Assembly (NCBI GenBank): GCA_002395155.1 | Contig: DGWD01000034.1 | Coordinates: forward strand, 1,529-65,528 | DNA: 64,000 bases | Source of the DNA: Treponema sp. UBA4267 | GTDB taxonomy: Bacteria; Spirochaetota; Spirochaetia; Treponematales; Treponemataceae | Direction: 5' to 3' | In this document: piece by piece, positions 29,198-48,273 of the stretch | Layout of the letters: each line of letters begins with the position of its first letter | Position numbering within the stretch: the first letter of the stretch is position 1 | The notes under the pieces: generated by a model | What the model was told of the DNA's origin: nothing | What the model saw: the letters and a program-made list of their open reading frames with translations, nothing else | The model's database searches: none | Translations under genes and position numbers: made by a program

Positions 29198-30658
29198 ATG
29201 ATTAACAGTGCTCTTTTTACAGATTTTTATGAATTGACTATGGCCCAGGGCTATTGGAAGGACAATATGAATCAGAAGGTTGTATTCGATATGTTCTTCC
29301 GAAAAAATCCATTTAATGGAGGATTCTCAATTCTTGCAGGAAACGAAACTTTAATGGATATCATTGAAAACTTTCGTTTTAGCGAAGAAGATATTCAGTA
29401 TCTTGCAGACCAGAAAATCTTTGAAGAAGGATTTTTAAATTACTTAAAAGATTTCCATTTTACTGGGGACCTTTACACAATGGATGAAGGAACTGTTATA
29501 TTCCCTCAGGAACCTTTAGTTCGCATTCACGCAAACTTGATTGAAGCTCAGATTTTGGAAGGTCTTGTTCTTAATCATGTAAACTTCCAGTCTTTAATTG
29601 CTACAAAAACAGCCCGCATTTGGCTTGCAAGCAAAAAAGCTCCTATTATGGAATTTGGTTTACGCCGAGCTCAGGGGCCAGATGGTGCTATGTCGGCAAC
29701 AAGAGCTTCTTACATTGGTGGTGCAGCAGGAACTTCAAACACTCTTGCAGGTAAAGAATACGGCATTCCTGTTATGGGAACTATGGCTCATTCTTGGATT
29801 ATGTCTCATTCATCTGAACTGGAAGCCTTCCGTGAATATGCAAAAATCTATCCTACAAACTCTGTATTCCTAATCGATACTTACGATACTTTGAAATCTG
29901 GAATTAAGAATGCAATTATTGCTGGTGGAGAACTGGTTGAAAAAGGCTACAACTTTGGTGTTCGTCTTGATTCTGGTGATATTGATTATTTGACCCGCGA
30001 AGTTCGCAAGGAACTTGATAGAGCTGGTTATCCTCAGGCTAAGATTTCGGTTTCAAATGAATTAACCGAAGAAATTATTTCTACACTTGTTGCTCGTGGA
30101 GCTCCAATTAACTCTTGGGGTGTTGGAACTCACATGGTAACTGGTGGTAATGAATCTTCTTTCACAGGTGTTTATAAACTTGCGGCACGTCATGATAAAG
30201 AAAGCGACAAGATGATTCCTGCAATGAAATTCTCAGATAATCCAGCAAAGACTACAAACCCTGGAATTAAGAATGTGTACCGCCTTTACGATTCAAATGG
30301 AATGGCTTTGGCAGATATTCTGGCTCTTGATGGTGAAACTATTGAAGCTGGAAAAGAATATCGCTTCCATCATCCTATGGTTGATTACCGTCAATTTACA
30401 TGTAAAGCTGCAAAAGTTGAACCTCTTTTGAAAAAACGTATAGAAGACGGAAAAAGAATTACAAAACGTCTGCCAGATAACGAACAACTCAAAATAAGCA
30501 GAACTACTATGCAGAGCCAGCTTGAAACTTTTGATGAATCTTATAAGAGAATATTAAATCCACATATTTATAAAGTTTCACTTACAGAAAAATTAATGGA
30601 ACTGAAAAAGGATTTTATTGAGAAAAATATGTGTAAGGCCACTGGTGGCCGTTGTTAA
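29198..30658 (+). CDS. pncB: Nicotinate phosphoribosyltransferase
   Basis: TDFYELTM, EFGLRRAQG, GTMAHS, LIDTYD, GVRLDSGD, VYKL. Confidence 0.96.
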   Translation: MINSALFTDFYELTMAQGYWKDNMNQKVVFDMFFRKNPFNGGFSILAGNETLMDIIENFRFSEEDIQYLADQKIFEEGFLNYLKDFHFTGDLYTMDEGTVIFPQEPLVRIHANLIEAQILEGLVLNHVNFQSLIATKTARIWLASKKAPIMEFGLRRAQGPDGAMSATRASYIGGAAGTSNTLAGKEYGIPVMGTMAHSWIMSHSSELEAFREYAKIYPTNSVFLIDTYDTLKSGIKNAIIAGGELVEKGYNFGVRLDSGDIDYLTREVRKELDRAGYPQAKISVSNELTEEIISTLVARGAPINSWGVGTHMVTGGNESSFTGVYKLAARHDKESDKMIPAMKFSDNPAKTTNPGIKNVYRLYDSNGMALADILALDGETIEAGKEYRFHHPMVDYRQFTCKAAKVEPLLKKRIEDGKRITKRLPDNEQLKISRTTMQSQLETFDESYKRILNPHIYKVSLTEKLMELKKDFIEKNMCKATGGRC

Positions 30659-30706
30659 ATAGCAAAGCGTTAAAAAAATTGCGAAAGCAATTTTTAGCTT
30701 TACCAC
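30630..30706. repeat. Dispersed two-hairpin element, family B, copy 1 (overlaps the pncB stop)
   Basis: TGTGTAA-[ggcca/tggcc]-GTTGTT..ATAGCAAAGCGTTAAAAAAATTGC-gaaa-GCAATTTTTAGCTTTACCAC; shared with 48187-48273. Confidence 0.85.
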
Positions 30707-30708
30707 AT

Positions 30709-31437
30709 TTAAGGTAAATAAAGCGGCTGTATGTTTTTCATCGAAGCAAACAGCCGCTCTTTTTTTGCTTCATCACCATCTGTTAAAGTTTCAAGTTTAG
30801 CTCTTGCCTCTTTACGGGCAGAATTATCCTGAAAGTTACAGGTGCAGGTATAGCCCGCATATCCTCCCTTCTGAGCTTCTTCAATCAGGCGGGATTCACT
30901 TACATAACACAAGGGACGAATGACCGTAACAGGAAAATTGTCATACTTTAGTTTTGGTGGCATAGATGATAATTCACCCTTGTTCAACATATTCATTAAA
31001 AGAGTTTCAAGCATATCATCCATATGGTGGCCAAGGGCAATTTTGTTGTAGCCGTTTGCAATGGCATAATTCAAAAGCTCAGTGCGGCGCTGAGTAGAAC
31101 ACCACCAGCAGCTCATCTTCTGCCCAGGTTTTACTCGTTCCAAAACATTTACATTAAGCTGCTCAAAGGGAACATTCCACTCGCGGAACTTATCCATAAT
31201 CCCTTCTGGAAAATCTGGTGCAAAATCACTTTTAATAAAAAGAGCTTTATACTCAAAACTTGTATCAAGATTCCCTGAACGCACAGGCCTTTTTGCCCTA
31301 TCAGAAAAATATTTTATAAGGGCTGTAGAATCTTTTCCGCCACTAGCTCCAATAAGAATGCGGTCACCTTTTTCTATCAGATTGTAGTCAAAAACTGCTT
31401 TATCGATGAGACTTGAAAGTTTGGGAGGCTTTTTCAT
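30709..31437 (-). CDS. ttcA: tRNA 2-thiocytidine biosynthesis protein (PP-loop ATPase)
   Basis: SGGKDS, CWWC, ALGHHMDD, IRPL, C-terminal CTC. Confidence 0.85.
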   Translation of the reverse strand: MKKPPKLSSLIDKAVFDYNLIEKGDRILIGASGGKDSTALIKYFSDRAKRPVRSGNLDTSFEYKALFIKSDFAPDFPEGIMDKFREWNVPFEQLNVNVLERVKPGQKMSCWWCSTQRRTELLNYAIANGYNKIALGHHMDDMLETLLMNMLNKGELSSMPPKLKYDNFPVTVIRPLCYVSESRLIEEAQKGGYAGYTCTCNFQDNSARKEARAKLETLTDGDEAKKERLFASMKNIQPLYLP

Positions 31438-31470
31438 AGGGTTGTATTATAACATAAACTCTGTAGAAGT

Positions 31471-32097
31471 TTATATCTTTTTCAAAATCTGTTTTCCTGC
31501 TTTATAAAAACAAAAACTTAGAATTCCACTTAAAATTTTATCAACAAAGTTTTCCACCAGCCCTGCAAGATTATTTACAAAAAATAAGTTGGGAATTACG
31601 ATATACATTCCCTGAACAACTGTATTTGCACTGGGACGACCTGTATTTGCGGCAAAAACTAAATCAGCAATAATATTACCTAAAATCGCATTTGAAATAG
31701 CAGCCCAAAATCCGGCCCATAGAAAAGCTTCAAAAGAAAAAGATTCATATTTAGGAAAGGATTGTCTTCTATAATAAAAGAACACAAGCCATGCAAAAAC
31801 TGCAGTACAAATATGACAAACAGAAAACAAAATTGAACAGTGGGTAAAAATACTAAGAACTATATTTGATAAAAGGGCACATACAATTGCGGGTATTAAT
31901 CCGCATAAACTTGCCAGACCTATTGTTAGTAAAGAATCAAGATAAAGCGGAAACACAAGGATTTCTGCAAGAACAGACCCTGCATAGTTTACAAAAATGC
32001 AAAACACAGTAGCTAGAAAAATAAAAATCACTCTTATAAAATTAATTTCTTCGTATGAGAAAATACCGAATAATTCTTGTTGTAAATCTGCTTTCAT
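31471..32097 (-). CDS. Integral membrane protein, ECF S-component-like
   Basis: Six hydrophobic segments; PLYLDS and DKILS motifs; adjacent to the response regulator gene. Confidence 0.6.
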   Translation of the reverse strand: MKADLQQELFGIFSYEEINFIRVIFIFLATVFCIFVNYAGSVLAEILVFPLYLDSLLTIGLASLCGLIPAIVCALLSNIVLSIFTHCSILFSVCHICTAVFAWLVFFYYRRQSFPKYESFSFEAFLWAGFWAAISNAILGNIIADLVFAANTGRPSANTVVQGMYIVIPNLFFVNNLAGLVENFVDKILSGILSFCFYKAGKQILKKI

Positions 32098-32099
32098 AA

Positions 32100-32783
32100 T
32101 TAAATTATTACTCCAAGTTTTCTAGAGGCACGTAAAAGTTCAAGTCTATCTTTTATACCAAGTTTTTGATATATGATTGACTTCTGATTGATTACAGTTT
32201 TTTCAGATTTTCCTAAAAGTTTTGCAATTTCGCTGGTACTTTTTTCTTGGGCCAAAAGAAGAAAAACCTCCTGCTCTTTTGGAGTAAAGGTTTTATAGTT
32301 TTCAAAAAGTTCCTGAACGCGAAGTTCTTCATAATCTGTATTAGAACCCTTGTTTTTTGAAATTAAAGATTGCATCACTTCTTTTGCAGCTTTGTTGTAA
32401 TACATACTTCCATCAGAAACGAACTCAATTGCTTTTTCAATTTCTCGAACTTCACAGTCTTTTGTAATATACCCCTGAATGTTTTTCTTTAAGGCCGCTT
32501 CAATATGAAGCATATCTGAATACATTGTGTAAATGATTATGTTTAACTGTGGAACAATTTTTCTAAAATCGTCAATAAAATTCAGACCGCTTTCACCATT
32601 AATATTTATGTCTAAGATGGCGTTTTTTATATCACTATTATTATTGAGAATTTCTACTGCTTCTTCTTTGGTAGAGGCATTGTAAAATTTAAGATTCTGG
32701 TTTTCCTTGCTTAAAAGAAAACTAATTCCATCGCGTAAGCCGGAGTGATCATCAACGAACAATATTTTTAATTGTAATTGCAA
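32100..32783 (-). CDS. NarL/LuxR-family response regulator
   Basis: VDDH, ILDINI, YTM, GYITK; C-terminal TPKEQEVF..STSEIAKLLGKSEKTV. Confidence 0.95.
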   Translation of the reverse strand: MQLQLKILFVDDHSGLRDGISFLLSKENQNLKFYNASTKEEAVEILNNNSDIKNAILDININGESGLNFIDDFRKIVPQLNIIIYTMYSDMLHIEAALKKNIQGYITKDCEVREIEKAIEFVSDGSMYYNKAAKEVMQSLISKNKGSNTDYEELRVQELFENYKTFTPKEQEVFLLLAQEKSTSEIAKLLGKSEKTVINQKSIIYQKLGIKDRLELLRASRKLGVII

Positions 32784-33777
32784 TTGTGGTTCCTCCCTTT
32801 CCAGAAATTTCTACAGTACCACCAAGTTTTTCAACTCTGGAACGGATATTTACCAGGCCATAATGATTTTTTTCATCAACCTTTTTTGTTGTAATTTCTA
32901 CTTCAGAAAAGCCCAGTCCATTATCTTCAATAATAAAACGGATAAATGAACCAATATCAGTAATTTTTAATGTAAGGACAGTAGCCTTTGAATGTTTAAA
33001 ACAGTTGCTCAAAGCTTCCTGCAGAATTTTAAGTAACTCCATTTGAGTGTCAGCAGAAAGTCCTTTAATAAGTTTGGAGGCACACAAGAATTCGGTTTTA
33101 ATTCCAAAGTTTACCTCAAATGATTTTAAGTTTTGCTGAATAATTTCTTCAAAGTTTTGATTAAAGTCCAAATGGGTAGAATCAATCATATATCGAACTT
33201 CTTTAAATGCCTGTTCTGAATAATAAACAGCTTTTTCCTTTTCATCATTCTGTATAAAAAGTTTTAAGGCGGCCAGATCTTGGGCTACTCCATCATGCAA
33301 ATCCTGACTAAATTTTAGTTTTGCTCTATTAAGACTCTGTATTCGTAAAAGTTCATTTTTTTTGCTTAAAGTTTTATACAAAACAAGAACACTGGAAATC
33401 AAAAGTAGAAAAAATGAAGAGATAAAAAGACAGTCATAACCAAAGTTAATGGATTTTTGATTAAGACGAATTAAATTTACAAGACGAAAAACTTCTTCAA
33501 AACTGTTCTCGGTTTCATTTTCTAATTCACTAAAAATTTTAGAAACAACATTAAACTGGTTTTCAATTTCTTCACTATAGTATGTAAATGGTGCAAGTTG
33601 CTTTTTAAGTGAAACAAGCTTTTCATCCTTATTCTCTATAATAAGACTATTAATAATAGAAATTATTTCATCATATTTTTTTTGTGACTCTATTTTCAAA
33701 TAAACTGTAAAGACAAAAATCAAAAGAGAAAGAGAAATAAGAATATATTCGATTTTGAAAACATTTTTAATTTTCAT
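32752..33777 (-). CDS. HisKA_3 sensor histidine kinase
   Basis: Two TM segments; QDLHDGVAQDL, QEALSN..KHS, DNGLGF, GLVNIRSR, GGT. Confidence 0.95.
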   Translation of the reverse strand: MKIKNVFKIEYILISLSLLIFVFTVYLKIESQKKYDEIISIINSLIIENKDEKLVSLKKQLAPFTYYSEEIENQFNVVSKIFSELENETENSFEEVFRLVNLIRLNQKSINFGYDCLFISSFFLLLISSVLVLYKTLSKKNELLRIQSLNRAKLKFSQDLHDGVAQDLAALKLFIQNDEKEKAVYYSEQAFKEVRYMIDSTHLDFNQNFEEIIQQNLKSFEVNFGIKTEFLCASKLIKGLSADTQMELLKILQEALSNCFKHSKATVLTLKITDIGSFIRFIIEDNGLGFSEVEITTKKVDEKNHYGLVNIRSRVEKLGGTVEISGKGGTTIAITIKNIVR

Positions 33778-33809
33778 AAGATCATTATAGCATACTTCAT
33801 CTTTTACGT

Positions 33810-33826
33810 TCGGGAACTTTTCCCGA
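33810..33826. promoter_or_regulatory. Palindromic operator candidate
   Basis: TCGGGAA-ctt-TTCCCGA, GC-rich in an AT-rich divergent intergenic region. Confidence 0.55.
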
Positions 33827-33939
33827 GTGTATATAGGATTTCAAACTCAAGACAATTACTTAAAAATCTATATATTGTGTAAGCAAGTATAAAAGCAAGA
33901 AAGAGTTTTTAATTAAAAATATTCACACAAGGTATTATA

Positions 33940-35478
33940 ATGAAACGTTTTTTAATTGTAATTTCTTTTTTATCTCTCTGTTTCCTTTGTTCCGCAGAAG
34001 ATAATTCCTCAATTCCACGATATAAGGGCTTTGCCGCAGGTGGAGACATTCTCAGTCAATTTGCAATTGGTGATTACTCAAAATTTGCAATAATGAATCT
34101 TGGAGCATCTCTTACCGGAGAATATACAATTCCACTTGAGCTTCCAAAGAATATGGATTTAGGGTTGGCGGTTCGTGCAGACTTTGCCCATGTTTTTGTA
34201 AAATCTGGACAGAAATTAAAATCTGATGAAGAAATCCGTGCATTTGGTGCAGCCTGGCTTCGCATTCCTTTTATTTTAGGAAATCAGTTTTTTGCTTTTC
34301 AACCGGAGATTGGAGGCGGCCTTTCTGTATTCCTTTCAAATTACGAGAGTGGAGGACAGATAAAAAGCGGAACGTATCTTTCTCCTCTTATAAGTATTGC
34401 TCCTTCTTTCCGCTGGATTCCACCAAAAGTCCAGCAGCTCGAAGTAGAAGCCTCTCCACTCTTTACACTTGTTCCAGAAAATTCAAAAGCTACAACATTG
34501 CTTGGCTTAAGGTTGGGCGCAATCTGGCACTTCCAGATGAAAAACGATAACAGTGCAGAAGAAAAGAAAAAGGCTAAGCTTGAAAAGGCAGAAGAGAAAC
34601 GTCAGAAAAAAGAAGCTGGACGTCTGGAAGCAGAAGAAAAACGAAGAAAAGAGGAAGAAGAACGTCTGGCTGCTGAAGAAAAACGTCGCGAACAAGAAGA
34701 AGAGGAACGCCTCAAAGAAGAAAGACGAAGACGAGAAGAAGAAGCCGAACGTGCTCGCCTCGCAGAAGAAGAAAAACGCCGCGCCGAAGAGGAAGCTGAA
34801 AAAGCTCGCCTTGAAGAAGCTGAACGCAAACGCAAGGCTGAAGAAGAGGCTGAAAAAGCACGCCTCGCAGAAGAAGAAAAACGCCGCGCCGAAGAAGAAG
34901 CTGAGCGTGCACGTCTGGAAGAAGATGAACGCAAACGTAAGGCTGAAGAAGAGCGCAGACTTGCAGAAGAAGCCGAATCTGAAGAAATAGCAGAGAAAGA
35001 GCCTGAAACAGAAGAAATTATAGAAGCTGAACCTGAGCCGGAAAGCCCATTAGAGCCTGCCCAGCCGAAAATCATTACAGAGCGTCTTGTTCTCAAACGT
35101 ATTCTCTACTTCAGCAAGAATGGTGCCGTATTTACAGGCCTCAGCCGCGAACAGATTCGCCAAAACGAAAAGACAATTGATGAAGCCGTAGAACTCATCA
35201 AAAAACATCCGGAATGCACAGTATTAATAGAAGGTTATGCAAACAACATCAGCGGAAGCGAAGAAGAAGACCGCACAGCCTGTATGCCACTTTCACTGTG
35301 GCGTGCAGAATACATAAAGAAAGAACTCAAAAAACGCGGAATTGATGAAGATAAAATTGAAACTGTAGGAAAAGGCGGAGCAAATCCTCTTGCAGACAAA
35401 GCAGACCGCAACAACTGGTGGAAGAACCGCCGCGTAGAATTCTTAATCACATACGAAAGCGAGGTTGAAAATGAATAG
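33940..35478 (+). CDS. OmpA-family protein: N-terminal beta-barrel, long E/K/R/A helix, OmpA-like peptidoglycan-binding domain
   Basis: Signal peptide; barrel ending LGLRLGAIWHF; repeated EEEAEKARLAEEEKRRA; IEGYAN, LSLWRA, NRRVEF. Confidence 0.88.
   Translation: MKRFLIVISFLSLCFLCSAEDNSSIPRYKGFAAGGDILSQFAIGDYSKFAIMNLGASLTGEYTIPLELPKNMDLGLAVRADFAHVFVKSGQKLKSDEEIRAFGAAWLRIPFILGNQFFAFQPEIGGGLSVFLSNYESGGQIKSGTYLSPLISIAPSFRWIPPKVQQLEVEASPLFTLVPENSKATTLLGLRLGAIWHFQMKNDNSAEEKKKAKLEKAEEKRQKKEAGRLEAEEKRRKEEEERLAAEEKRREQEEEERLKEERRRREEEAERARLAEEEKRRAEEEAEKARLEEAERKRKAEEEAEKARLAEEEKRRAEEEAERARLEEDERKRKAEEERRLAEEAESEEIAEKEPETEEIIEAEPEPESPLEPAQPKIITERLVLKRILYFSKNGAVFTGLSREQIRQNEKTIDEAVELIKKHPECTVLIEGYANNISGSEEEDRTACMPLSLWRAEYIKKELKKRGIDEDKIETVGKGGANPLADKADRNNWWKNRRVEFLITYESEVENE
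34725..34975 (+). repeat. Coding tandem repeats in the OmpA charged linker
   Basis: cgcctcgcagaagaagaaaaacgccgcgccgaaga occurs twice; gaacgcaaacgYaaggctgaagaaga occurs twice. Confidence 0.85.
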
Positions 35479-37051
35479 AAGAAATCACCATCTCTTAAAA
35501 ACAGGAATAAAACTCTTTGCAACTCTCTTTATCATATTTGTAGCAATAGAGTTTACAGCATGTTCAAATCATATTATGGATATTACAGAAGCTCTTCCGC
35601 AAGTGGAAGAATCAAAGGAGTCAAATAATAAAGATAGTGAAAAAACTACAGAAAATGGTGGTGGTACTGCAAGTGGAGGCGGCACAACAAGTGGCACTCC
35701 AGCCGAAGGTGGCGGGGGTACAACAAATGGAGGCGGTTCAAGCGGCGGATCTAATGGAGGCTCAAACGGTGGGGAAACGCCACCTCCTTCTACACCTACC
35801 CCAGGTGCAGCTACATACAATATTACAGTTGCAAGTGGAATTGAAAATGGAAGCATAAGCGTAAGCAAAACCACAGCAGCTGCGGGTGAAACTATTTCAA
35901 TTACAGTTAATCCAGCTTCTGGTTATGAACTTGAAACAATTACAGTAAGAGATTCAAGCGGAACCTCCCTTACAGTTACAAACAACACTTTTGTAATGCC
36001 AGAAAGTAATGTAAGTGTAAATGCATCGTTTAGAGTTACTGTAACTTACTATAACATAAGTATTGAAAGTGGTATTCCACACGGAACAATAACTGTAGAT
36101 AAAACTACAGCAACTGCGGGTGAAACCGTCACAATTACAGCAACTCCTGATAATGGATACGATATGGCATTTTTTTATCTAAGTAAGTTACCTTTTACCG
36201 CATCAAGCCGGCAAAAAATCATAGGCTACTCTTTCATAATGCCATCTTACGACGTATCAATATCTACACAGTTTCTTCCAGCTACAATATCACTTAAGGA
36301 AGGAGGTAATTTTAGAACTAATACAACTATCACAATAGGTTATGAATCAATGACAAAATTCTTACATAGTACGACACCTCCAGAAACAGGAACTTATTTT
36401 TATAACATAGCTTCAGATGAATGTATGCCATGCTATATATGGAAAGAAGGATCCACGTTATATTATTACGCGAAAGGCTATACAGACACATATCCACCTG
36501 TAAAAAAAATATTACTAAAAAATGGATATAATTTTTCTGGATTTTGGGCTGTTACTGAAATTGATCTTGAATACTTTGATACTTCGAATGTTACTAGCAT
36601 GTCTTCTATGTTTAGTGGGTGCCATAAACTTACATCATTAAATCTTGAGAATTTCGATACTTCAAATGTAACTGACATGAGTTATATGTTCTATGATTGC
36701 TGTGACCTTACATCATTAAATCTTGAGAATTTCGATACTTCAAATGTAACTAATATGAGTTATATGTTCTCTGATTGCTATAAACTTACATCATTAAATC
36801 TTGAGAATTTCGATACTTCAAATGTTACTAATATGAAAGAAATGTTTTATTATAATTACACACTTCAAACTATAACAGTATCATCAAGATTTGTATTAAC
36901 AAATGTCATAAGATCCAATGATATGTTTTATCGTTGTTACGAATTAGTAGGTGGAAGTGGAACTAAATGGAATAGTTCACATTTGAATATAGAATACGCC
37001 CGTGTAGACAATCCACCAGATGCGCCAGGATATTTCACACTTAAACAGTAA
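35465..37051 (+). CDS. Surface lipoprotein with Gly-rich linker, two InlB-B/Flg_new-like repeats and BspA/DUF285 leucine-rich repeats
   Basis: Lipobox FTAC; AAAGETISITVNPASGY and ATAGETVTITATPDNGY; 26-aa repeats LTSLNLENFDTSNVTxMxxMF; C-terminal PGYFT. Confidence 0.88.
   Translation: MKMNRRNHHLLKTGIKLFATLFIIFVAIEFTACSNHIMDITEALPQVEESKESNNKDSEKTTENGGGTASGGGTTSGTPAEGGGGTTNGGGSSGGSNGGSNGGETPPPSTPTPGAATYNITVASGIENGSISVSKTTAAAGETISITVNPASGYELETITVRDSSGTSLTVTNNTFVMPESNVSVNASFRVTVTYYNISIESGIPHGTITVDKTTATAGETVTITATPDNGYDMAFFYLSKLPFTASSRQKIIGYSFIMPSYDVSISTQFLPATISLKEGGNFRTNTTITIGYESMTKFLHSTTPPETGTYFYNIASDECMPCYIWKEGSTLYYYAKGYTDTYPPVKKILLKNGYNFSGFWAVTEIDLEYFDTSNVTSMSSMFSGCHKLTSLNLENFDTSNVTDMSYMFYDCCDLTSLNLENFDTSNVTNMSYMFSDCYKLTSLNLENFDTSNVTNMKEMFYYNYTLQTITVSSRFVLTNVIRSNDMFYRCYELVGGSGTKWNSSHLNIEYARVDNPPDAPGYFTLKQ
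36629..36825 (+). repeat. 78-bp-period coding repeat with a perfectly conserved 41-bp block
   Basis: cttacatcattaaatcttgagaatttcgatacttcaaatgt at 36629, 36707 and 36785. Confidence 0.95.
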
Positions 37052-37093
37052 AGAATGCAGATGATGCTTCAGAATCATTAAGGAGACACTAAA

Positions 37094-37654
37094 TTGAACG
37101 AGAAATCATGGACTAAACAAATCTGTAATATATTAAACGAGGAATTTACTAATAAAAAAATGAATCTCCATGCAGAAACTTTAAAAAAGCTTCCATATGA
37201 AAAAACACTTTATTCTTTTAATCAGAATTGGAAAGCAAATTATTCTAAAGAAATAAATTATGAAACAGATTTATTTATATATGAAATAAAAAATAATTTA
37301 ATAATTCCACGTATAGTAATTGAAGCAAAATTCAAAAATATAACGACACATGATGCCATAACTTATAATTTCAAAGCTAAAGAGCATAAAAATATTATAC
37401 CCTTTCTTAGATATGGAATTATGATAGGTAATAATAAAGAAAAGACTTTATCATGGAAAATATTCAATCATGGGGAAAATTTTGATTTTATGTATAGTTT
37501 CAAAAAACAAAGTCCAGATTCATCTGAACGTAAAGAATTTCTTGAAATAATTTATAACGAAATAAAATATAGCAAAGAATATGAGACAATTATACAAAGC
37601 AGAGGAAAAAAATCAGGTATTCATTTATTTGAAAAAAGTTTGAAAATTAAATAA
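37094..37654 (+). CDS. Hypothetical protein, putative PD-(D/E)XK nuclease fold
   Basis: AAGGAG RBS and TTG start; ETDLFI...IVIEAK motif; very low GC. Confidence 0.55.
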   Translation: MNEKSWTKQICNILNEEFTNKKMNLHAETLKKLPYEKTLYSFNQNWKANYSKEINYETDLFIYEIKNNLIIPRIVIEAKFKNITTHDAITYNFKAKEHKNIIPFLRYGIMIGNNKEKTLSWKIFNHGENFDFMYSFKKQSPDSSERKEFLEIIYNEIKYSKEYETIIQSRGKKSGIHLFEKSLKIK

Positions 37655-37659
37655 AACTT

Positions 37660-37782
37660 TTAAACGCATTTTACAATCGCAGTAAAAAACTCTGCACTCC
37701 ACAAATCCAGTTTACGTTCGTCCTGAATAAAGGGGCGAACGTCTTTTTTTGCGGCTTCAAAATCAATTTCTTTGAAATGTTC
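37660..37782 (-). pseudogene. C-terminal remnant of an AbiEii-like nucleotidyltransferase toxin
   Basis: Manual translation EHFKEIDFEAAKKDVRPFIQDERKLDLWSAEFFTAIVKCV* resembles the IDFxxAKxDVxPFI...LDxWS C-terminus of that family; no start codon. Confidence 0.6.
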
Positions 37783-37794
37783 GCTATTGACTGT

Positions 37795-38811
37795 TTATTT
37801 ATCAACTAACTGTTTTACTTCATTTATTTCCTTTATGAGCTGTTCTGTTGTAGGCAAATAAAAATTATATTCACTTGCATGAATTGTAGAATTATCTTCT
37901 GGGAGAGACATTTTTACTACTGTATCATTTTTTAAAGCACACAGAAGAATGCCTATTGTTTTATTTTCTTCCGGTAGTTTTTCATTACGGTCATAGAAAT
38001 TTACATACATCTGTAGTTGTCCTAAATCTTGATGTGTAAGTTTTCCTGTTTTTATTTCAACAATGACAAAGCATTTCAAAAGGCGATTATAATATACCAT
38101 ATCTATAAAGAATTCATCATCTTCTATCAAAATTTGTTTCTGTCTAGCAACAAAAGAAAATTCTTTACCCATCTCAAGCAAAAAATCTGTTATATGAGAA
38201 ATGATTGCACTTTCAAAATCTTTTTCAAAATACTCAGCTTTTCTTTCTAATTCTAAAAATTCCAAAATCATAGGATCTTTTATTATTTCTTTTGGTGATT
38301 CCGGAATTCGTTCTTTTCTAGCAACTGCCAGAACAGCTTCCTTATTATTACTAAGCAGAAGCCGTTCATACAACTGACTATTTATTTGTCTTTCAGTTTC
38401 TCGTGTAGTCCAGCCATTGTTTACGGATTCTAATTCATAATATTCACGTTTGTCAGGATCTGATATCTGTATTAATCTTCGATATTGACTCCAGTTCAAT
38501 TGCGACCGCAGTGTGGTCGCAATTGGATACAAACAATAAAATTGTCTCGCTCGTTCTAATTGCCGTTTATTAAATCCACTCCCATATTCAGATTCAAGCT
38601 TTTCTGCAAGTTTTTTTATCAGATAGCTTCCATAATCCGCTCTTTCTTTTTTCTGCTGTTCTTCTTCAAAAATTCGTCTTCCCAAACTCCAATACATCTG
38701 TACTCTGCAAAAGTCAACACTCTTTACCGCATTACTGCGTGAAAACTCAATAATTTTCCTCGCATCATCTAAAATATTTAATGATTTGATATGAAGTAAT
38801 TCATTTTTCAT
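37795..38811 (-). CDS. YhcG/DUF1016 PD-(D/E)XK nuclease-domain protein
   Basis: YWSLGRRI, LNWSQY, IKDPMILEFL, FVARQ, IDMVYY..VEIK, GQLQMY; ATG at 38811 preceded by GGGGA. Confidence 0.93.
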   Translation of the reverse strand: MKNELLHIKSLNILDDARKIIEFSRSNAVKSVDFCRVQMYWSLGRRIFEEEQQKKERADYGSYLIKKLAEKLESEYGSGFNKRQLERARQFYCLYPIATTLRSQLNWSQYRRLIQISDPDKREYYELESVNNGWTTRETERQINSQLYERLLLSNNKEAVLAVARKERIPESPKEIIKDPMILEFLELERKAEYFEKDFESAIISHITDFLLEMGKEFSFVARQKQILIEDDEFFIDMVYYNRLLKCFVIVEIKTGKLTHQDLGQLQMYVNFYDRNEKLPEENKTIGILLCALKNDTVVKMSLPEDNSTIHASEYNFYLPTTEQLIKEINEVKQLVDK

Positions 38812-38934
38812 ATTATCCCCCAACAAAACAAAAAAAAATGGCTGAACGCTTTTATGCATTCAGCCATTAAATACTTCATATATAATATAGACTCAATTAA
38901 CACATTTTTGACAAAATTTTCTAAAAAAATCCCT

Positions 38935-38960
38935 AAAAAAAACACTTTCCGAAGAAAGTG
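38935..38960 (-). terminator. Intrinsic terminator downstream of the duplicate GGGtGRT gene end
   Basis: cactttc-cgaa-gaaagtg with an A run on its left (U tail on the minus strand). Confidence 0.65.
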
Positions 38961-38965
38961 CTTTT

Positions 38966-39044
38966 ATGGATTGCTTCGGCCCTGAGCCTCTCAATGACGG
39001 ACATTATCTGTCATTGAGAGGAGCGTAGCGACGTGGCAATCTAT
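38966..39044. repeat. REP-like long imperfect palindrome (GATTGCTTCG...CAATGAC / GTCATTG...GCAATC type)
   Basis: gattgc..cctctcaatgac pairs with gtcattgagagg..gcaatc; recognisable as a widespread intergenic palindrome type. Confidence 0.75.
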
Positions 39045-39045
39045 A

Positions 39046-39078
39046 TTAGAATGAACCAGCTACTGCTACAGCACATGC
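39046..39078 (-). pseudogene. Duplicate 3' end of the GGGtGRT gene (ACAVAVAGSF*)
   Basis: GCA TGT GCT GTA GCA GTA GCT GGT TCA TTC TAA encodes the same peptide as 39253-39285. Confidence 0.85.
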
Positions 39079-39195
39079 CTACAATCGAAGAACCGTTAAA
39101 AAAAATTGTGCGACAGTGCAATTTTTTAGGTTCATCGAAAGAATGGCTCGCCGCGAGACTAGCGAGCGGCGGCAACGGCTTGCAGTAGCATGTGC
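39071..39195. repeat. Multi-hairpin element related to family B
   Basis: gaacc-gt-taaaaaaaattg/caatttttta-ggttc stem, gctcgc/gcgagc stem, terminal inverted repeat gcacatgc/gcatgtgc. Confidence 0.7.
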
Positions 39196-39199
39196 CTAT

Positions 39200-39235
39200 A
39201 AAAAAAAGAGCTCCGTTTATTCACGGAGCTCTTTT
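39200..39235 (-). terminator. Intrinsic terminator of the nifU-like/GGGtGRT operon
   Basis: aaaagagctccgt-N6-acggagctctttt with an A8 run on its left. Confidence 0.85.
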
Positions 39236-39252
39236 AATCATTCAAGATAGAA

Positions 39253-40290
39253 CTAGAAACTTCCAGCAACTGCTACGGCACACGCAACAGTACATCCTAC
39301 CATAGGGTTGTTTCCCATTCCCATGAAGCCCATCATTTCTACGTGAGCTGGTACTGATGACGAACCTGCGAACTGTGCATCTGAATGCATACGTCCGAGA
39401 GTATCAGTAAAGCCGTAAGAAGCTGGACCTGCAGCCATGTTATCAGGATGGAGTGTACGACCTGTACCACCACCAGAAGCTACAGAGAAGTATTTCTTAC
39501 CAGCAAGGAGGCGTTCCTTCTTGTAAGTACCTGCAACTGGGTGCTGGAAACGTGTTGGGTTTGTAGAGTTTCCTGTAATAGAAACATCAACATCTTCGTG
39601 CCACATAATTGCAACACCTTCGCGTACATCGTCAGCACCGTAGCACTTTACGATAAGGCGGTCAGGGTTAGATCCATATGGAACTTCCTTAACAATCTTA
39701 AGAGCCTTGTCAGTACCTTCGCCATTGAAATAGTCGAATTCAGTCTGAACATATGTAAAGCCGTTAATACGTGAAATAATCTGAGCAGCGTCTTTTCCAA
39801 GACCGTTCAAGATAACGCGGAGCTTGTTCTTACGAACTTTGTTAGCGTTAGCAGCAATCTTAATAGCACCTTCAGCAGCAGCGAATGATTCGTGACCTGC
39901 CAAGAATGCGAAACACTGAGTTTCTTCTGAAAGAAGACGAGCACCAAGGTTTCCGTGTCCAAGACCTACTTTACGGTCATCAGCTACAGAACCTGGCAAA
40001 CAGAAGGCCTGCAAGCCTTTACCAATATTTGCAGCAGCTGTAGAACCTGTCTTATCGCCAGTTTTTTCAGCTTCCTTAATAGCAATAGCAGAACCGAGAA
40101 CATATGCCCATTTAGCATCTTCAAAACAAATCTGCTGTGTAGACTGACAGATTTCGTATGGATCGAAACCGTGTGATTTACAAAGATCACGAGCTTCATT
40201 TAATCCTGCTTCACCTTCTTTAAAACCATATTCTTTAAGAGCCTTATTCACCTGAGGAATGCGGCCTTCAAAATCTTCAAATAATGCCAT
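39253..40290 (-). CDS. GGGtGRT protein (function unknown)
   Basis: SVASGGGTGRTLHPDNM, LAGHESFAAAEGA. Confidence 0.95.
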   Translation of the reverse strand: MALFEDFEGRIPQVNKALKEYGFKEGEAGLNEARDLCKSHGFDPYEICQSTQQICFEDAKWAYVLGSAIAIKEAEKTGDKTGSTAAANIGKGLQAFCLPGSVADDRKVGLGHGNLGARLLSEETQCFAFLAGHESFAAAEGAIKIAANANKVRKNKLRVILNGLGKDAAQIISRINGFTYVQTEFDYFNGEGTDKALKIVKEVPYGSNPDRLIVKCYGADDVREGVAIMWHEDVDVSITGNSTNPTRFQHPVAGTYKKERLLAGKKYFSVASGGGTGRTLHPDNMAAGPASYGFTDTLGRMHSDAQFAGSSSVPAHVEMMGFMGMGNNPMVGCTVACAVAVAGSF

Positions 40291-40300
40291 TATATTCCTC

Positions 40301-41002
40301 CTATTCCTTTCTAGGGTCGATAAGTTTTACCATACCCTGATCAGCAGTTACACGACCATAGTGAGTACGTGCACCTTCGATAGCTTCCTGTGCAGGTTTT
40401 CCAGCCTTAAGAGCATCCATTAATTTACCAAAGTTGATACAGTTGTAACCAATAATCTGTCCATCTTTATCAACAGCACAAGTTTCTACATAACCTTCTG
40501 TCATTTCGAGATAGCGAGGACCTGTTTTGCGTGTAGCAAACATTGTTCCTACCTGAGAACGGAGGTTCTTTCCAAGGTCTTCAAGAGAAGCACCAACTTT
40601 AAGTCCACCCTTAGAATAAGCTGACTGAGTACGACCGTAAACAATCTGCATGAAAAGTTCGCGCATAGCAGTGTTGATAGCATCACAAACGAGGTCAGTA
40701 TTCAAAGCTTCAAGCAAAGTTTTTCCGATAAGAATTTCAGATGCCATAGCAGCTGAGTGAGTCATACCAGAACAACCAATAGTTTCAACGAGAGCTTCTT
40801 CAATAATGCCGTCTTTAACATTAAGAGAAAGTTTACAAGCACCCTGCTGTGGGGCACACCAACCGATTCCGTGTGTAAAACCAGAAACGTCTTCAATTTT
40901 TTTTACCTTTACCCATTCCCCTTCTTCAGGAATTGGGGCAGGTCCATGATATGCGCCTTTTGCCAAAGGACACATATGTTCCACTTCTGCAGTGTATACC
41001 AT
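40301..41002 (-). CDS. NifU/IscU-like iron-sulfur scaffold-domain protein, partner of GGGtGRT
   Basis: GWCAPQQGAC, TIGCSGMTHS, DLVCDAIN; start moved to ATG 41002 because of the AAGGAG RBS. Confidence 0.88.
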   Translation of the reverse strand: MVYTAEVEHMCPLAKGAYHGPAPIPEEGEWVKVKKIEDVSGFTHGIGWCAPQQGACKLSLNVKDGIIEEALVETIGCSGMTHSAAMASEILIGKTLLEALNTDLVCDAINTAMRELFMQIVYGRTQSAYSKGGLKVGASLEDLGKNLRSQVGTMFATRKTGPRYLEMTEGYVETCAVDKDGQIIGYNCINFGKLMDALKAGKPAQEAIEGARTHYGRVTADQGMVKLIDPRKE

Positions 41003-41094
41003 GAAATGCTCCTTAAATATAGAGAAAAAAATTATGTGAAAGGAAAAACTCTGAAAGGAGTAAGCAGTATATCTTTTTGCAGATGCCTGCCAAC

Positions 41095-41121
41095 GACTCA
41101 TTAGCCACAATTAGTCATTTC
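41095..41121. promoter_or_regulatory. 27-bp repeat / palindromic operator candidate, copy 1
   Basis: gactcattagccacaattagtcatttc; one mismatch to 41251-41277. Confidence 0.6.
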
Positions 41122-41197
41122 CTTTTAGATAGAATCTTCCTATCTTTCCATATTAATATAGAAGAATATCGTTTTTTATTAGATTTATCAATCATAA

Positions 41198-41226
41198 TTG
41201 ACACAATATGAAACAATCATTAAACT
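41198..41226 (+). promoter_or_regulatory. Sigma70 promoter of eno
   Basis: TTGACA-17 bp-TAAACT. Confidence 0.75.
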
Positions 41227-41250
41227 AGGATTTGTTAGTATTACCTAACT

Positions 41251-41277
41251 GACTCATTAGCCACAATCAGTCATTTC
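41251..41277. promoter_or_regulatory. 27-bp repeat / palindromic operator candidate, copy 2
   Basis: gactcattagccacaatcagtcatttc in the eno leader. Confidence 0.6.
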
Positions 41278-41280
41278 TAA

Positions 41281-42630
<1,350 letters not shown>

Positions 42631-48186: not shown

Positions 48187-48273
48187 TGTGTAAGCCCGCC
48201 GGTCAGAGCGGGCGGTGTTCGATAGCAAAGCGTTAAAAAAAATTGCGACACAGCAATTTTTTAGCTTTACCAC
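48187..48273. repeat. Dispersed two-hairpin element, family B, copy 2 (argG leader)
   Basis: TGTGTAA-[gcccgc/gcgggc]-GGTGTT..ATAGCAAAGCGTTAAAAAAAATTGC-gacaca-GCAATTTTTTAGCTTTACCAC. Confidence 0.85.

Follow-up and report, generated by a model that had tools for sequence, protein, structure and literature searches.

A putative site-specific mini-cassette supplying the 3' end of the GGGtGRT gene in Treponema sp. UBA4267

The stretch of DNA analysed here, termed the window (WIN), comprises 64,000 nucleotides from Treponema sp. UBA4267 (GenBank assembly GCA_002395155.1, contig DGWD01000034.1, positions 1,529 to 65,528 of the forward strand). It contains a GGGtGRT-family gene with two synonymous 3' ends, separated by a small hairpin element that is probably a site-specific mini-cassette and that is the subject of this study. 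The genome of origin, labelled G000, is a draft assembly of 45 contigs and 85% completeness, with the window copy on contig C43; other genomes are labelled G and loci L, each with a number. Comparisons were made within the genus of rumen and gut Treponema (T. saccharophilum, T. ruminis, T. pectinovorum and sp. JC4). The host gene (39253–40290, minus strand) encodes 345 aa according to the open reading frame (ORF) list, of which the final 10 codons would be cassette-borne. Its product terminates in GCTVACAVAVAGSF and the stop, the final residues being ACAVAVAGSF, and orthologues with 83–99% identity were found in 80 Treponema species.

All parts of the element are read on the minus strand. The end in use, E (39253–39282; TGT GCC GTA GCA GTT GCT GGA AGT TTC TAG), lies directly behind a crossover at GCG^TGT (a caret marks crossovers throughout), and its homology to the second end begins at this TGT. 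E is followed by T1 (39196–39252), a spacer and intrinsic terminator with stem arms at 39204–39216 and 39223–39235 and then a T run; T1 travels together with E and is also located 3' of the gene in G006 (L012), L131 and L199. Next come R'' (39177–39196), an inverted copy of the gene segment across the crossover with the reverse complement GGCTTGCAGTAGCA^TGTGCC, and a GC-rich CTCGC-N5-CTCGC or small-hairpin box (39150–39173), which precedes the module in most family members and forms a local hairpin in the fold. The 73-nt hairpin module, named F1 (39077–39149), consists of GAGCC, an outer stem, CTAAAA, a variable inner hairpin, a TTTTTTAAC bulge, the returning outer stem and CGATTGTAGGC; it matched the F1 covariance model, R1, with 87 bits (E = 1e-18). 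The junction base A and the orphan end, E' (39046–39076; TGT GCT GTA GCA GTA GCT GGT TCA TTC TAA), close the arrangement 207 bp downstream of the working end. The ORF list holds no ORF in 39046–39252, and an Rfam scan of 36000–42000 at E ≤ 1 gave nothing except two chance matches.

The two ends encode the same peptide and stop. They differ at 8 bases, 8/8 synonymously and with an AGT/TCA serine switch, and form a direct repeat of 78% identity across 32 nt. An earlier note on this DNA had described these synonymous ends and a terminator behind each, and both were confirmed, the terminators at 39204–39235 and 38943–38960. That note started the orphan copy at GCA (39046–39078; GCA TGT GCT GTA GCA GTA GCT GGT TCA TTC TAA). 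The coding copy is real and is preceded by an in-frame TAG, but true homology with the gene begins at TGT (39075), and the GCA derives from the conserved module end ...GTAGGC plus A. The inverted junction copy with one bulged base that it reported is also real in the single-stranded DNA (ssDNA) fold of 39060–39200 (minus strand), where 39185–39196 forms the closing stem with the junction around one bulged G (z = −4.8; 0/200 shuffles folded as well); the copy proved to be longer, from 39177 to 39196. A template and variable repeat of the diversity-generating retroelement type was ruled out, since the differences between the ends are not adenine-specific. The orphan of the window had also been considered a copy with a 12-nt deletion, an explanation replaced by a second crossover site, at the second Cys codon, common to L131 and L135.

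The orphan is judged to be the original end of the gene, as had been proposed, because the working end has codons absent from the gene body and the orphan has preferred ones, and because the orphan adjoins ancestral neighbours and a G007-like terminator. The gene body contains 18 TCN and 0 AGY serine codons, and 37 GCT or GCA, 1 GCC and 0 GCG alanine codons; the working end contains GCC and AGT and is preceded by GCG, and the orphan end contains preferred codons only. Scored against the gene body, codon usage had a log-likelihood of −7.4 at the orphan and −16.3 at the working end. In 9 of the 13 loci compared, it was the orphan that fitted better. Genes that adjoin the GGGtGRT gene in L131, G015 and G007 have their matches at 29198–31443 of the window, on the side of the orphan, which is followed by T2 (38938–38965, minus strand; hairpin at 38943–38960), probably the original terminator and similar to the native terminator of G007. 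The nearest single-end relatives allowed no decision, their ends being mosaic.

The comparison of regions downstream of the GGGtGRT gene across the genus, suggested in the earlier note, revealed duplicated ends behind a module in at least 18 species. A second ...CTVACAVAVAGSF plus stop was found 110–280 nt downstream in the loci of 12 of the 80 species by the strict motif; the window, G017 and four loci with eroded orphans complete the total. A module lies between both ends in every double-end locus, either F1 or a second, unrelated family, F2 (GGGCAGCCGTGCGAG...GGTTGCGAC). The junction is always directly 5' of one of two Cys codons (ATG GTA GGN^TGY ACN GTN GCN^TGY GCN), the second of which is used by the window, L131 and L135, and the breakpoint is always 0–3 nt past the GTnGGC box of the module. 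At the first site, the gene sequence GTAGGY is identical to this end box, which may explain the frequent hits on the GGGtGRT gene. Across 14 pairs of ends, which are not fully independent, 96 of 100 base differences were synonymous, compared with 27% expected (P about 6e-50). Both ends therefore diverged while each served as a working gene end, in separate lineages, and were joined later; an untranslated duplicate drifting in place is excluded by the same count. The GGA AGT end with T1 is common to the window, G006, L131 and L199. L199 carries an F2 module behind the same E, T1 and start of R'', and L135 the same R'' and F1 behind a different terminator; the parts of the cassette therefore recombine modularly.

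The serine codon family at the gene end switched 13 times on the gene tree. At another position, an invariant serine codon 173 codons before the GGGtGRT stop, 9 AGY/TCN switches were counted, and recombination inside the gene may be frequent apart from end cassettes.

The module is not restricted to this gene. Sequences matching the central 73 nt (39077–39149) occur at about 15 places in G000 and at many in sister genomes. Aligned, 22 copies show, in order, GAGCC, the outer stem, invariant CTAAA, an inner hairpin of free sequence, invariant TTTTTAACG with unpaired AAC, the returning outer stem and CGATnGTnGGC, with compensatory changes in 8 of 13 predicted base pairs. Of the 101 genomes searched in the genus, 51 gave R1 matches, frequently over 40 and at most about 50 per genome, and 125 genomes from 58 other genera within the order gave none. 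The F1 family is structured, and its range is limited to this Treponema genus. Whole F1 elements measure 94–210 bp and the captured gene or tRNA ends 20–66 nt.

In G000, 14 of 26 full-length F1 copies are followed by a repeat of sequence from 30–240 nt upstream (z = 6–30), which begins 0–3 nt after ...GTnGGC. Tandem arrays of a gene 3' end with its stop, or a tRNA 3' end, followed by terminator and module are present on five contigs besides that of the window, including C1, C37, C45 and C10. The C1 array has six units, C37 carries three copies of VKINGDYRT plus stop with up to 7/9 codons different, all synonymously, C45 has three units at tRNA-Leu(CAA), and an orphan tRNA-Met end is also among the arrayed duplications. 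The near-complete genome G092 has 21 of its 24 F1 copies in arrays at tRNA genes. In G043, copies are mostly solitary, in operon spacers and with the GGC end against the stop codon, and just 2 of 21 show flank duplication. No usable empty site was found for a solitary copy, from which boundaries or a target duplication could be read, the spacers being too diverged between species. The earlier note had regarded the element as specific to the GGGtGRT gene and as possibly a scar. Neither view held: it also sits at the ends of tRNA genes and of other protein genes, in many cases in tandem arrays, and the window copy is complete and belongs to a genus-wide family of non-autonomous mini-cassettes.

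Other arrangements of F1 were observed. Bare units of 91–97 nt, head-to-tail and with no captured gene end, are found at G000:C10:118044-118232, G092:C1:875362-875705 and G105:C25:7474-7643, and these arrays look like empty cassettes. Five 168-nt units lie upstream of tRNA-Arg(CCT), the true tRNA being last (G092:C1:1998400-1999300, L119–L123; G000:C45:33533-33900); they resemble a tRNA with F1 replacing the anticodon arm, and have D-arm GAGCA in place of the module GAGCC.

R'' is a further part of the cassettes. Equivalents, located left of the module, were detected in 12 of the 15 cassette loci, compared with 1 of the 37 that have a single end. Matches with the resident gene were 21/21 in L133 and L162, 20/21 in L193 and 17/17 in L131. 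The tRNA cassettes have R'' too (GACTTGAAC versus G^TTCAAGTC; GTCGAACCA versus TGG^TTCGA), and their junctions are at G^TTC with matching ..GAAC R'' boxes. In the window, the reverse complement of R'' reads GCAGTAGCA^TGTGCC and the resident gene ACTGTTGCG^TGTGCC. After the crossover R'' matches the cassette's own E (GCC); before it, there are three synonymous differences from the resident gene, which match alleles of other species, a foreign pattern, as expected of an imported cassette.

On this evidence, 39077–39282 is probably a non-autonomous site-specific mini-cassette composed of E, T1, R'' and F1 and inserted in the GGGtGRT gene. This is in line with the earlier proposal of an element that integrates in the gene and supplies a replacement end, and the site is reused in other genomes. 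Integration would have taken place at GCN^TGY, ten codons ahead of the stop, with the cassette-borne end now completing the protein, and the original end (39046–39075) would have been pushed 207 bp downstream and orphaned. The mobile form of the cassette may be circular or single-stranded; in it, R'' would pair with the module end and the start of E, giving a stem that resembles the duplex target, with the module as its cap. Strand exchange between this folded site and the gene would be carried out by a tyrosine recombinase acting in trans, comparable to attC with attG or attI, or to CTX-phage attP with dif. Cassettes may arise by recombination between a module 3' of a gene and a pseudo-site farther upstream; the GGGtGRT gene itself reads GTAGGY^TGY, identical to the module end box. 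There is a real chance that cassettes are formed by a new mechanism.

No integrase is present in the window, as described earlier, but one of integron type is encoded on another contig of G000 (C13:6368-7645; TIGR02249, 430 bits, cut-off 265). Canonical attC sites with R'' ATAACAA and R' TTGTTAT lie behind this intI. F1 is the central part of canonical attC sites in cassette arrays of G000 (C6), G043 and G158, and in G158 the F1-bearing true array adjoins intI. Among intI-positive genomes, F1 copies in tandem arrays numbered 21/24 in G092, 9/18 in G080, 6/47 in G105, 4/27 in G005 and 4/19 in G060, and in G000, also intI-positive, 14/26 copies are followed by a duplicated gene end; in five intI-negative genomes, arrays hold 4 of about 150 copies among the matches listed. 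The link of IntI to F1 arrays is a loose association with intI-positive genomes. When these links with intI, attC and arrays are weighed against the F1-rich genomes that have no intI, the integron integrase is the leading candidate and the preferred enzyme for the cassette, with a probability put somewhat short of even, followed by XerCD or another tyrosine recombinase.

The integron of G000 is a chromosomal one of 'inverted' type (G000:C13:1-7645 and G000:C6:18300-30200), in which intI is transcribed towards its own cassettes and the array is split over contigs, with short attC sites on C13 and long attC sites with nested F1 on C6. A 475-aa tyrosine integrase directly adjoins tRNA-Gly(TCC) at G000:C7:17107-18857. 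This C7 integrase was ruled out as the F1 enzyme, being an ordinary island-type integrase beside tRNA-Gly and unrelated to F1.

Several observations weigh against an imported cassette moved by an integrase. No recombinase could be tied to the element, and neither excised nor circular forms were observed. F1 is present in 32–51 copies without intI in G043 (99% complete, 51 copies), G006, G058 and G111, by which strict intI dependence was ruled out; G017 has a double end and no intI, and G048 and G098 have intI and no arrays. The crossovers of protein-gene cassettes, including that of the window, lack a GTT/AAC triplet, and the crossover is 1 nt past GTnGGC, compared with about 17 nt in the true attC sites of G000. 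The sister species G006 has the same E and T1, but module and orphan are absent, and a later deletion is therefore required. R'' agrees with the resident gene in most other species, even over 3–6 nt upstream of the duplicated part, for which a local origin or correction of a quasi-palindrome by template switching is needed; local templating of R'' by such correction would have to be added to the import model. Finally, the compared genomes are related, and the array/intI association and the pooled synonymous count are non-independent samples.

Among other explanations, it is unlikely that F1 is a transposase-moved repeat of the repetitive extragenic palindromic (REP) or miniature inverted-repeat transposable element (MITE) type, and that the double end reflects allelic replacement by homologous recombination after DNA uptake, with an endpoint in the last codons. 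Likeness to REP, BIME and MITE families (REP-RAYT, Correia, ERIC) is found in the high copy number, the hairpin, the position just past stop codons and the restriction to a single genus. In agreement with it, most copies in intI-free genomes stand alone in operon spacers, with no duplicated flank and directly against a stop codon, as is usual for REPs, and the serine switches (13 at the gene end, 9 at the other column) suggest that recombination within the gene is common. Such an endpoint does not account for a breakpoint fixed both in the module and at two Cys codons across the unrelated F1 and F2, nor for the strict linkage of R'' to cassettes, and the T-loop junctions of the tRNA cassettes are typical of site-specific integration. 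The element also differs in having neither the usual terminal inverted repeats nor target-site duplications. The Y1 transposase (PF01797) of REP-associated tyrosine transposase (RAYT) type is absent from G043, G006, G007 and G058, with 32–51 F1 copies each, and mobilisation of the RAYT or IS200 type was ruled out for this reason. REPs are not known to copy 20–66 nt of the gene end before them in a form that still codes.

In-situ tandem duplication without a recombinase, by slippage or template switching between the gene GTAGGY and the box of a pre-existing module and with later divergence, is considered quite unlikely. The identity of GTAGGY^TGY with the module end box would suit it, as would the near-identical tandem units in G092 and on C1 and C45 of G000, which resemble local amplification, and the arrays that close with a module and no final orphan; a perfect R'' copy of the resident gene, found in most loci, is what template switching would give. 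Against this, the 96/100 synonymous differences are not obtainable by drift of an untranslated copy. In the window, codon usage at the working end is foreign, and so is the allele that R'' matches; what follows the orphan is another flank with another terminator, not a second T1 and module.

A role as a 3'-untranslated or terminator RNA element, acting on mRNA stability or termination, with R'' paired to the coding end and the duplicated ends as by-products, is very unlikely. The inner hairpin between an A run and a T run is a bidirectional terminator and in some cassettes (G015) the sole one, F1 covaries strongly, and R'' co-varies with the resident coding sequence. However, R'' and the module of the window lie behind the strong terminator T1 and would rarely be transcribed, pairing of R'' with tRNA T-arms would harm tRNA folding, and the orphan ends are left unexplained. 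An assembly chimera of two strains collapsed at the gene end, conceivable for a draft genome such as G000, is scarcely credible, since the same architecture is found in at least 18 independent assemblies, isolates included (Treponema sp. JC4, locus L133, and C6A8, locus L135), and the module and R'' between the ends in each are not creatable by a chimera. The two outcomes that the earlier note had named as refuting its proposal, a chimera and the lack of insertions at this site in other genomes, were both contradicted.

The site-specific mini-cassette, as the preferred reading, was compared with known recombination systems. With integron attC sites it shares a folded hairpin with structure conserved over sequence, a variable centre and bulged bases, as well as an outer complementary R''/R' pair containing the crossover, ORF-less head-to-tail units, and, in this genus, F1 at the core of true attC sites beside intI. 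The differences are that its R box is target-specific (12–21 nt from the host gene) and not the generic RYYYAAC/GTTRRRY, that its crossover is 1–3 nt after GTnGGC and not within the distal R' box, that each cassette restores the 3' end of the interrupted gene, and that many host genomes have no intI. The boxes of the window are complementary (GCACATGCTAC and GTAG-G-CATGTGC) but carry TAC/GTA with the junction at GGCA^TGT, unlike attC R''/R' boxes, and the copy on C43 is apart from the intI on C13 and not in an array beside intI and attI. Integrons of Treponema have been reported (Wu et al. 2013, PMC3607928). Insertion of cassettes outside integrons, at non-canonical genomic attG sites, has also been reported, as has excision 'outside the insertion point' with alteration of the chromosome (Loot et al., bioRxiv 10.1101/2022.09.11.507474).

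In CTX-phage and integrative mobile elements exploiting Xer (IMEX), a folded single-stranded attP is recombined with dif by XerCD (PMC3442271, PMC3089051). The likeness consists of two inverted segments that fold to a stem mimicking the duplex chromosomal target, such a stem being present in the fold of the window, of a host tyrosine recombinase in trans, as proposed here, and of possible tandem integrated copies. Here, in contrast, the targets are the 3' ends of genes and tRNAs rather than dif, the element of about 200 bp has neither genes nor a phage, and no similarity to Xer sites was demonstrated for it.

Phage 21 and e14 integrate at icd and bring a replacement gene end, and islands that target tRNA genes do likewise. 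Phage mv4 integrates at tRNA-Ser (bioRxiv 10.1101/2023.11.06.565760). As in elements of this type, the duplicate end shows synonymous differences, the duplicated target flanks the element, the element-borne copy completes the gene, the original end is orphaned at the far junction, and tRNA crossovers are in the T-loop. Those elements are kilobases long and have their own integrase; the present one is 94–210 bp, gene-less, without an integrase of its own, array-forming and equipped with an inverted target copy. By analogy, it may be said to work like a folded site of attC/CTX type combined with a replacement end of icd/tRNA style, and it fails the defining sequence features of canonical attC. 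A literature search found no published description of the cassette family; the element is plausibly undescribed, as claimed earlier, but its architecture is close to that of known folded-hairpin recombination sites.

More tentatively, and with some doubt, these could be 'programmable' attC-like cassettes that represent a previously unseen stage of cassette genesis. A module would land behind a chromosomal gene, gain an R'' templated on a site within the gene, and then excise and integrate with the 3' end of the gene as cargo, so that a pool of exchangeable gene-end and tRNA-end cassettes would circulate among rumen Treponema species. The rise of integron cassettes and attC sites is a long-standing open question, and their origin would become directly studiable in a natural system if IntI (or Xer) were shown to be responsible. 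The genus offers natural intermediates: bare modules, modules in true attC sites, module-only tandem units, and end-capturing units with an inverted box. The family would also provide a route for between-species exchange of the last codons of conserved genes, and a 73-nt module with a target-matched stem might become a small sequence-addressable integration site if the enzyme were found.

The downstream flank of the GGGtGRT gene is different in almost every species compared, and the cassette family would explain this recurrent break in gene order. In the window, an accessory block of 7.4 kb (31471–38859) lies between the terminator of the orphan and the ancestral neighbour gene (30709–31437, minus strand) and contains two-component genes, two LRR/lipoprotein genes, a PD-(D/E)XK ORF and YhcG. 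No third copy of the gene end was found on its far side and no module in the block, and its link to the cassette is therefore positional only.

A second, unrelated palindromic repeat (GGATTGC..CCTCTCAATGAC..GTCATTGAGAGG..GCAATC; 38966–39040) is situated between the orphan end and T2 and is present as a single copy in G000. Palindromic relatives were observed beside orphan ends in L015, L202, L160 and G043 (L055); the variants (GGATTGC...GTCATTGCGAGG...GCAATCC; GGGGTCCCTGAG...GAAGGGGCC) tend to sit just past orphaned ends.

Short relatives of the F1 inner hairpin (GGTAAnCCTAAAAAATTGC..GCAATTTTTTTTAACGG) were noted at 48187–48273 and 30630–30706 of the window and at G000:C13:8154-8221 and G000:C6:96724-96768. 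They are followed by GCTAT, a GC hairpin (CACCGnCCGC...) and CTTACACAGGAGG, and are located just 5' of start codons, one of the genes being ammonium-transporter-like. This arrangement looks like a conserved 5' leader rather than a cassette.

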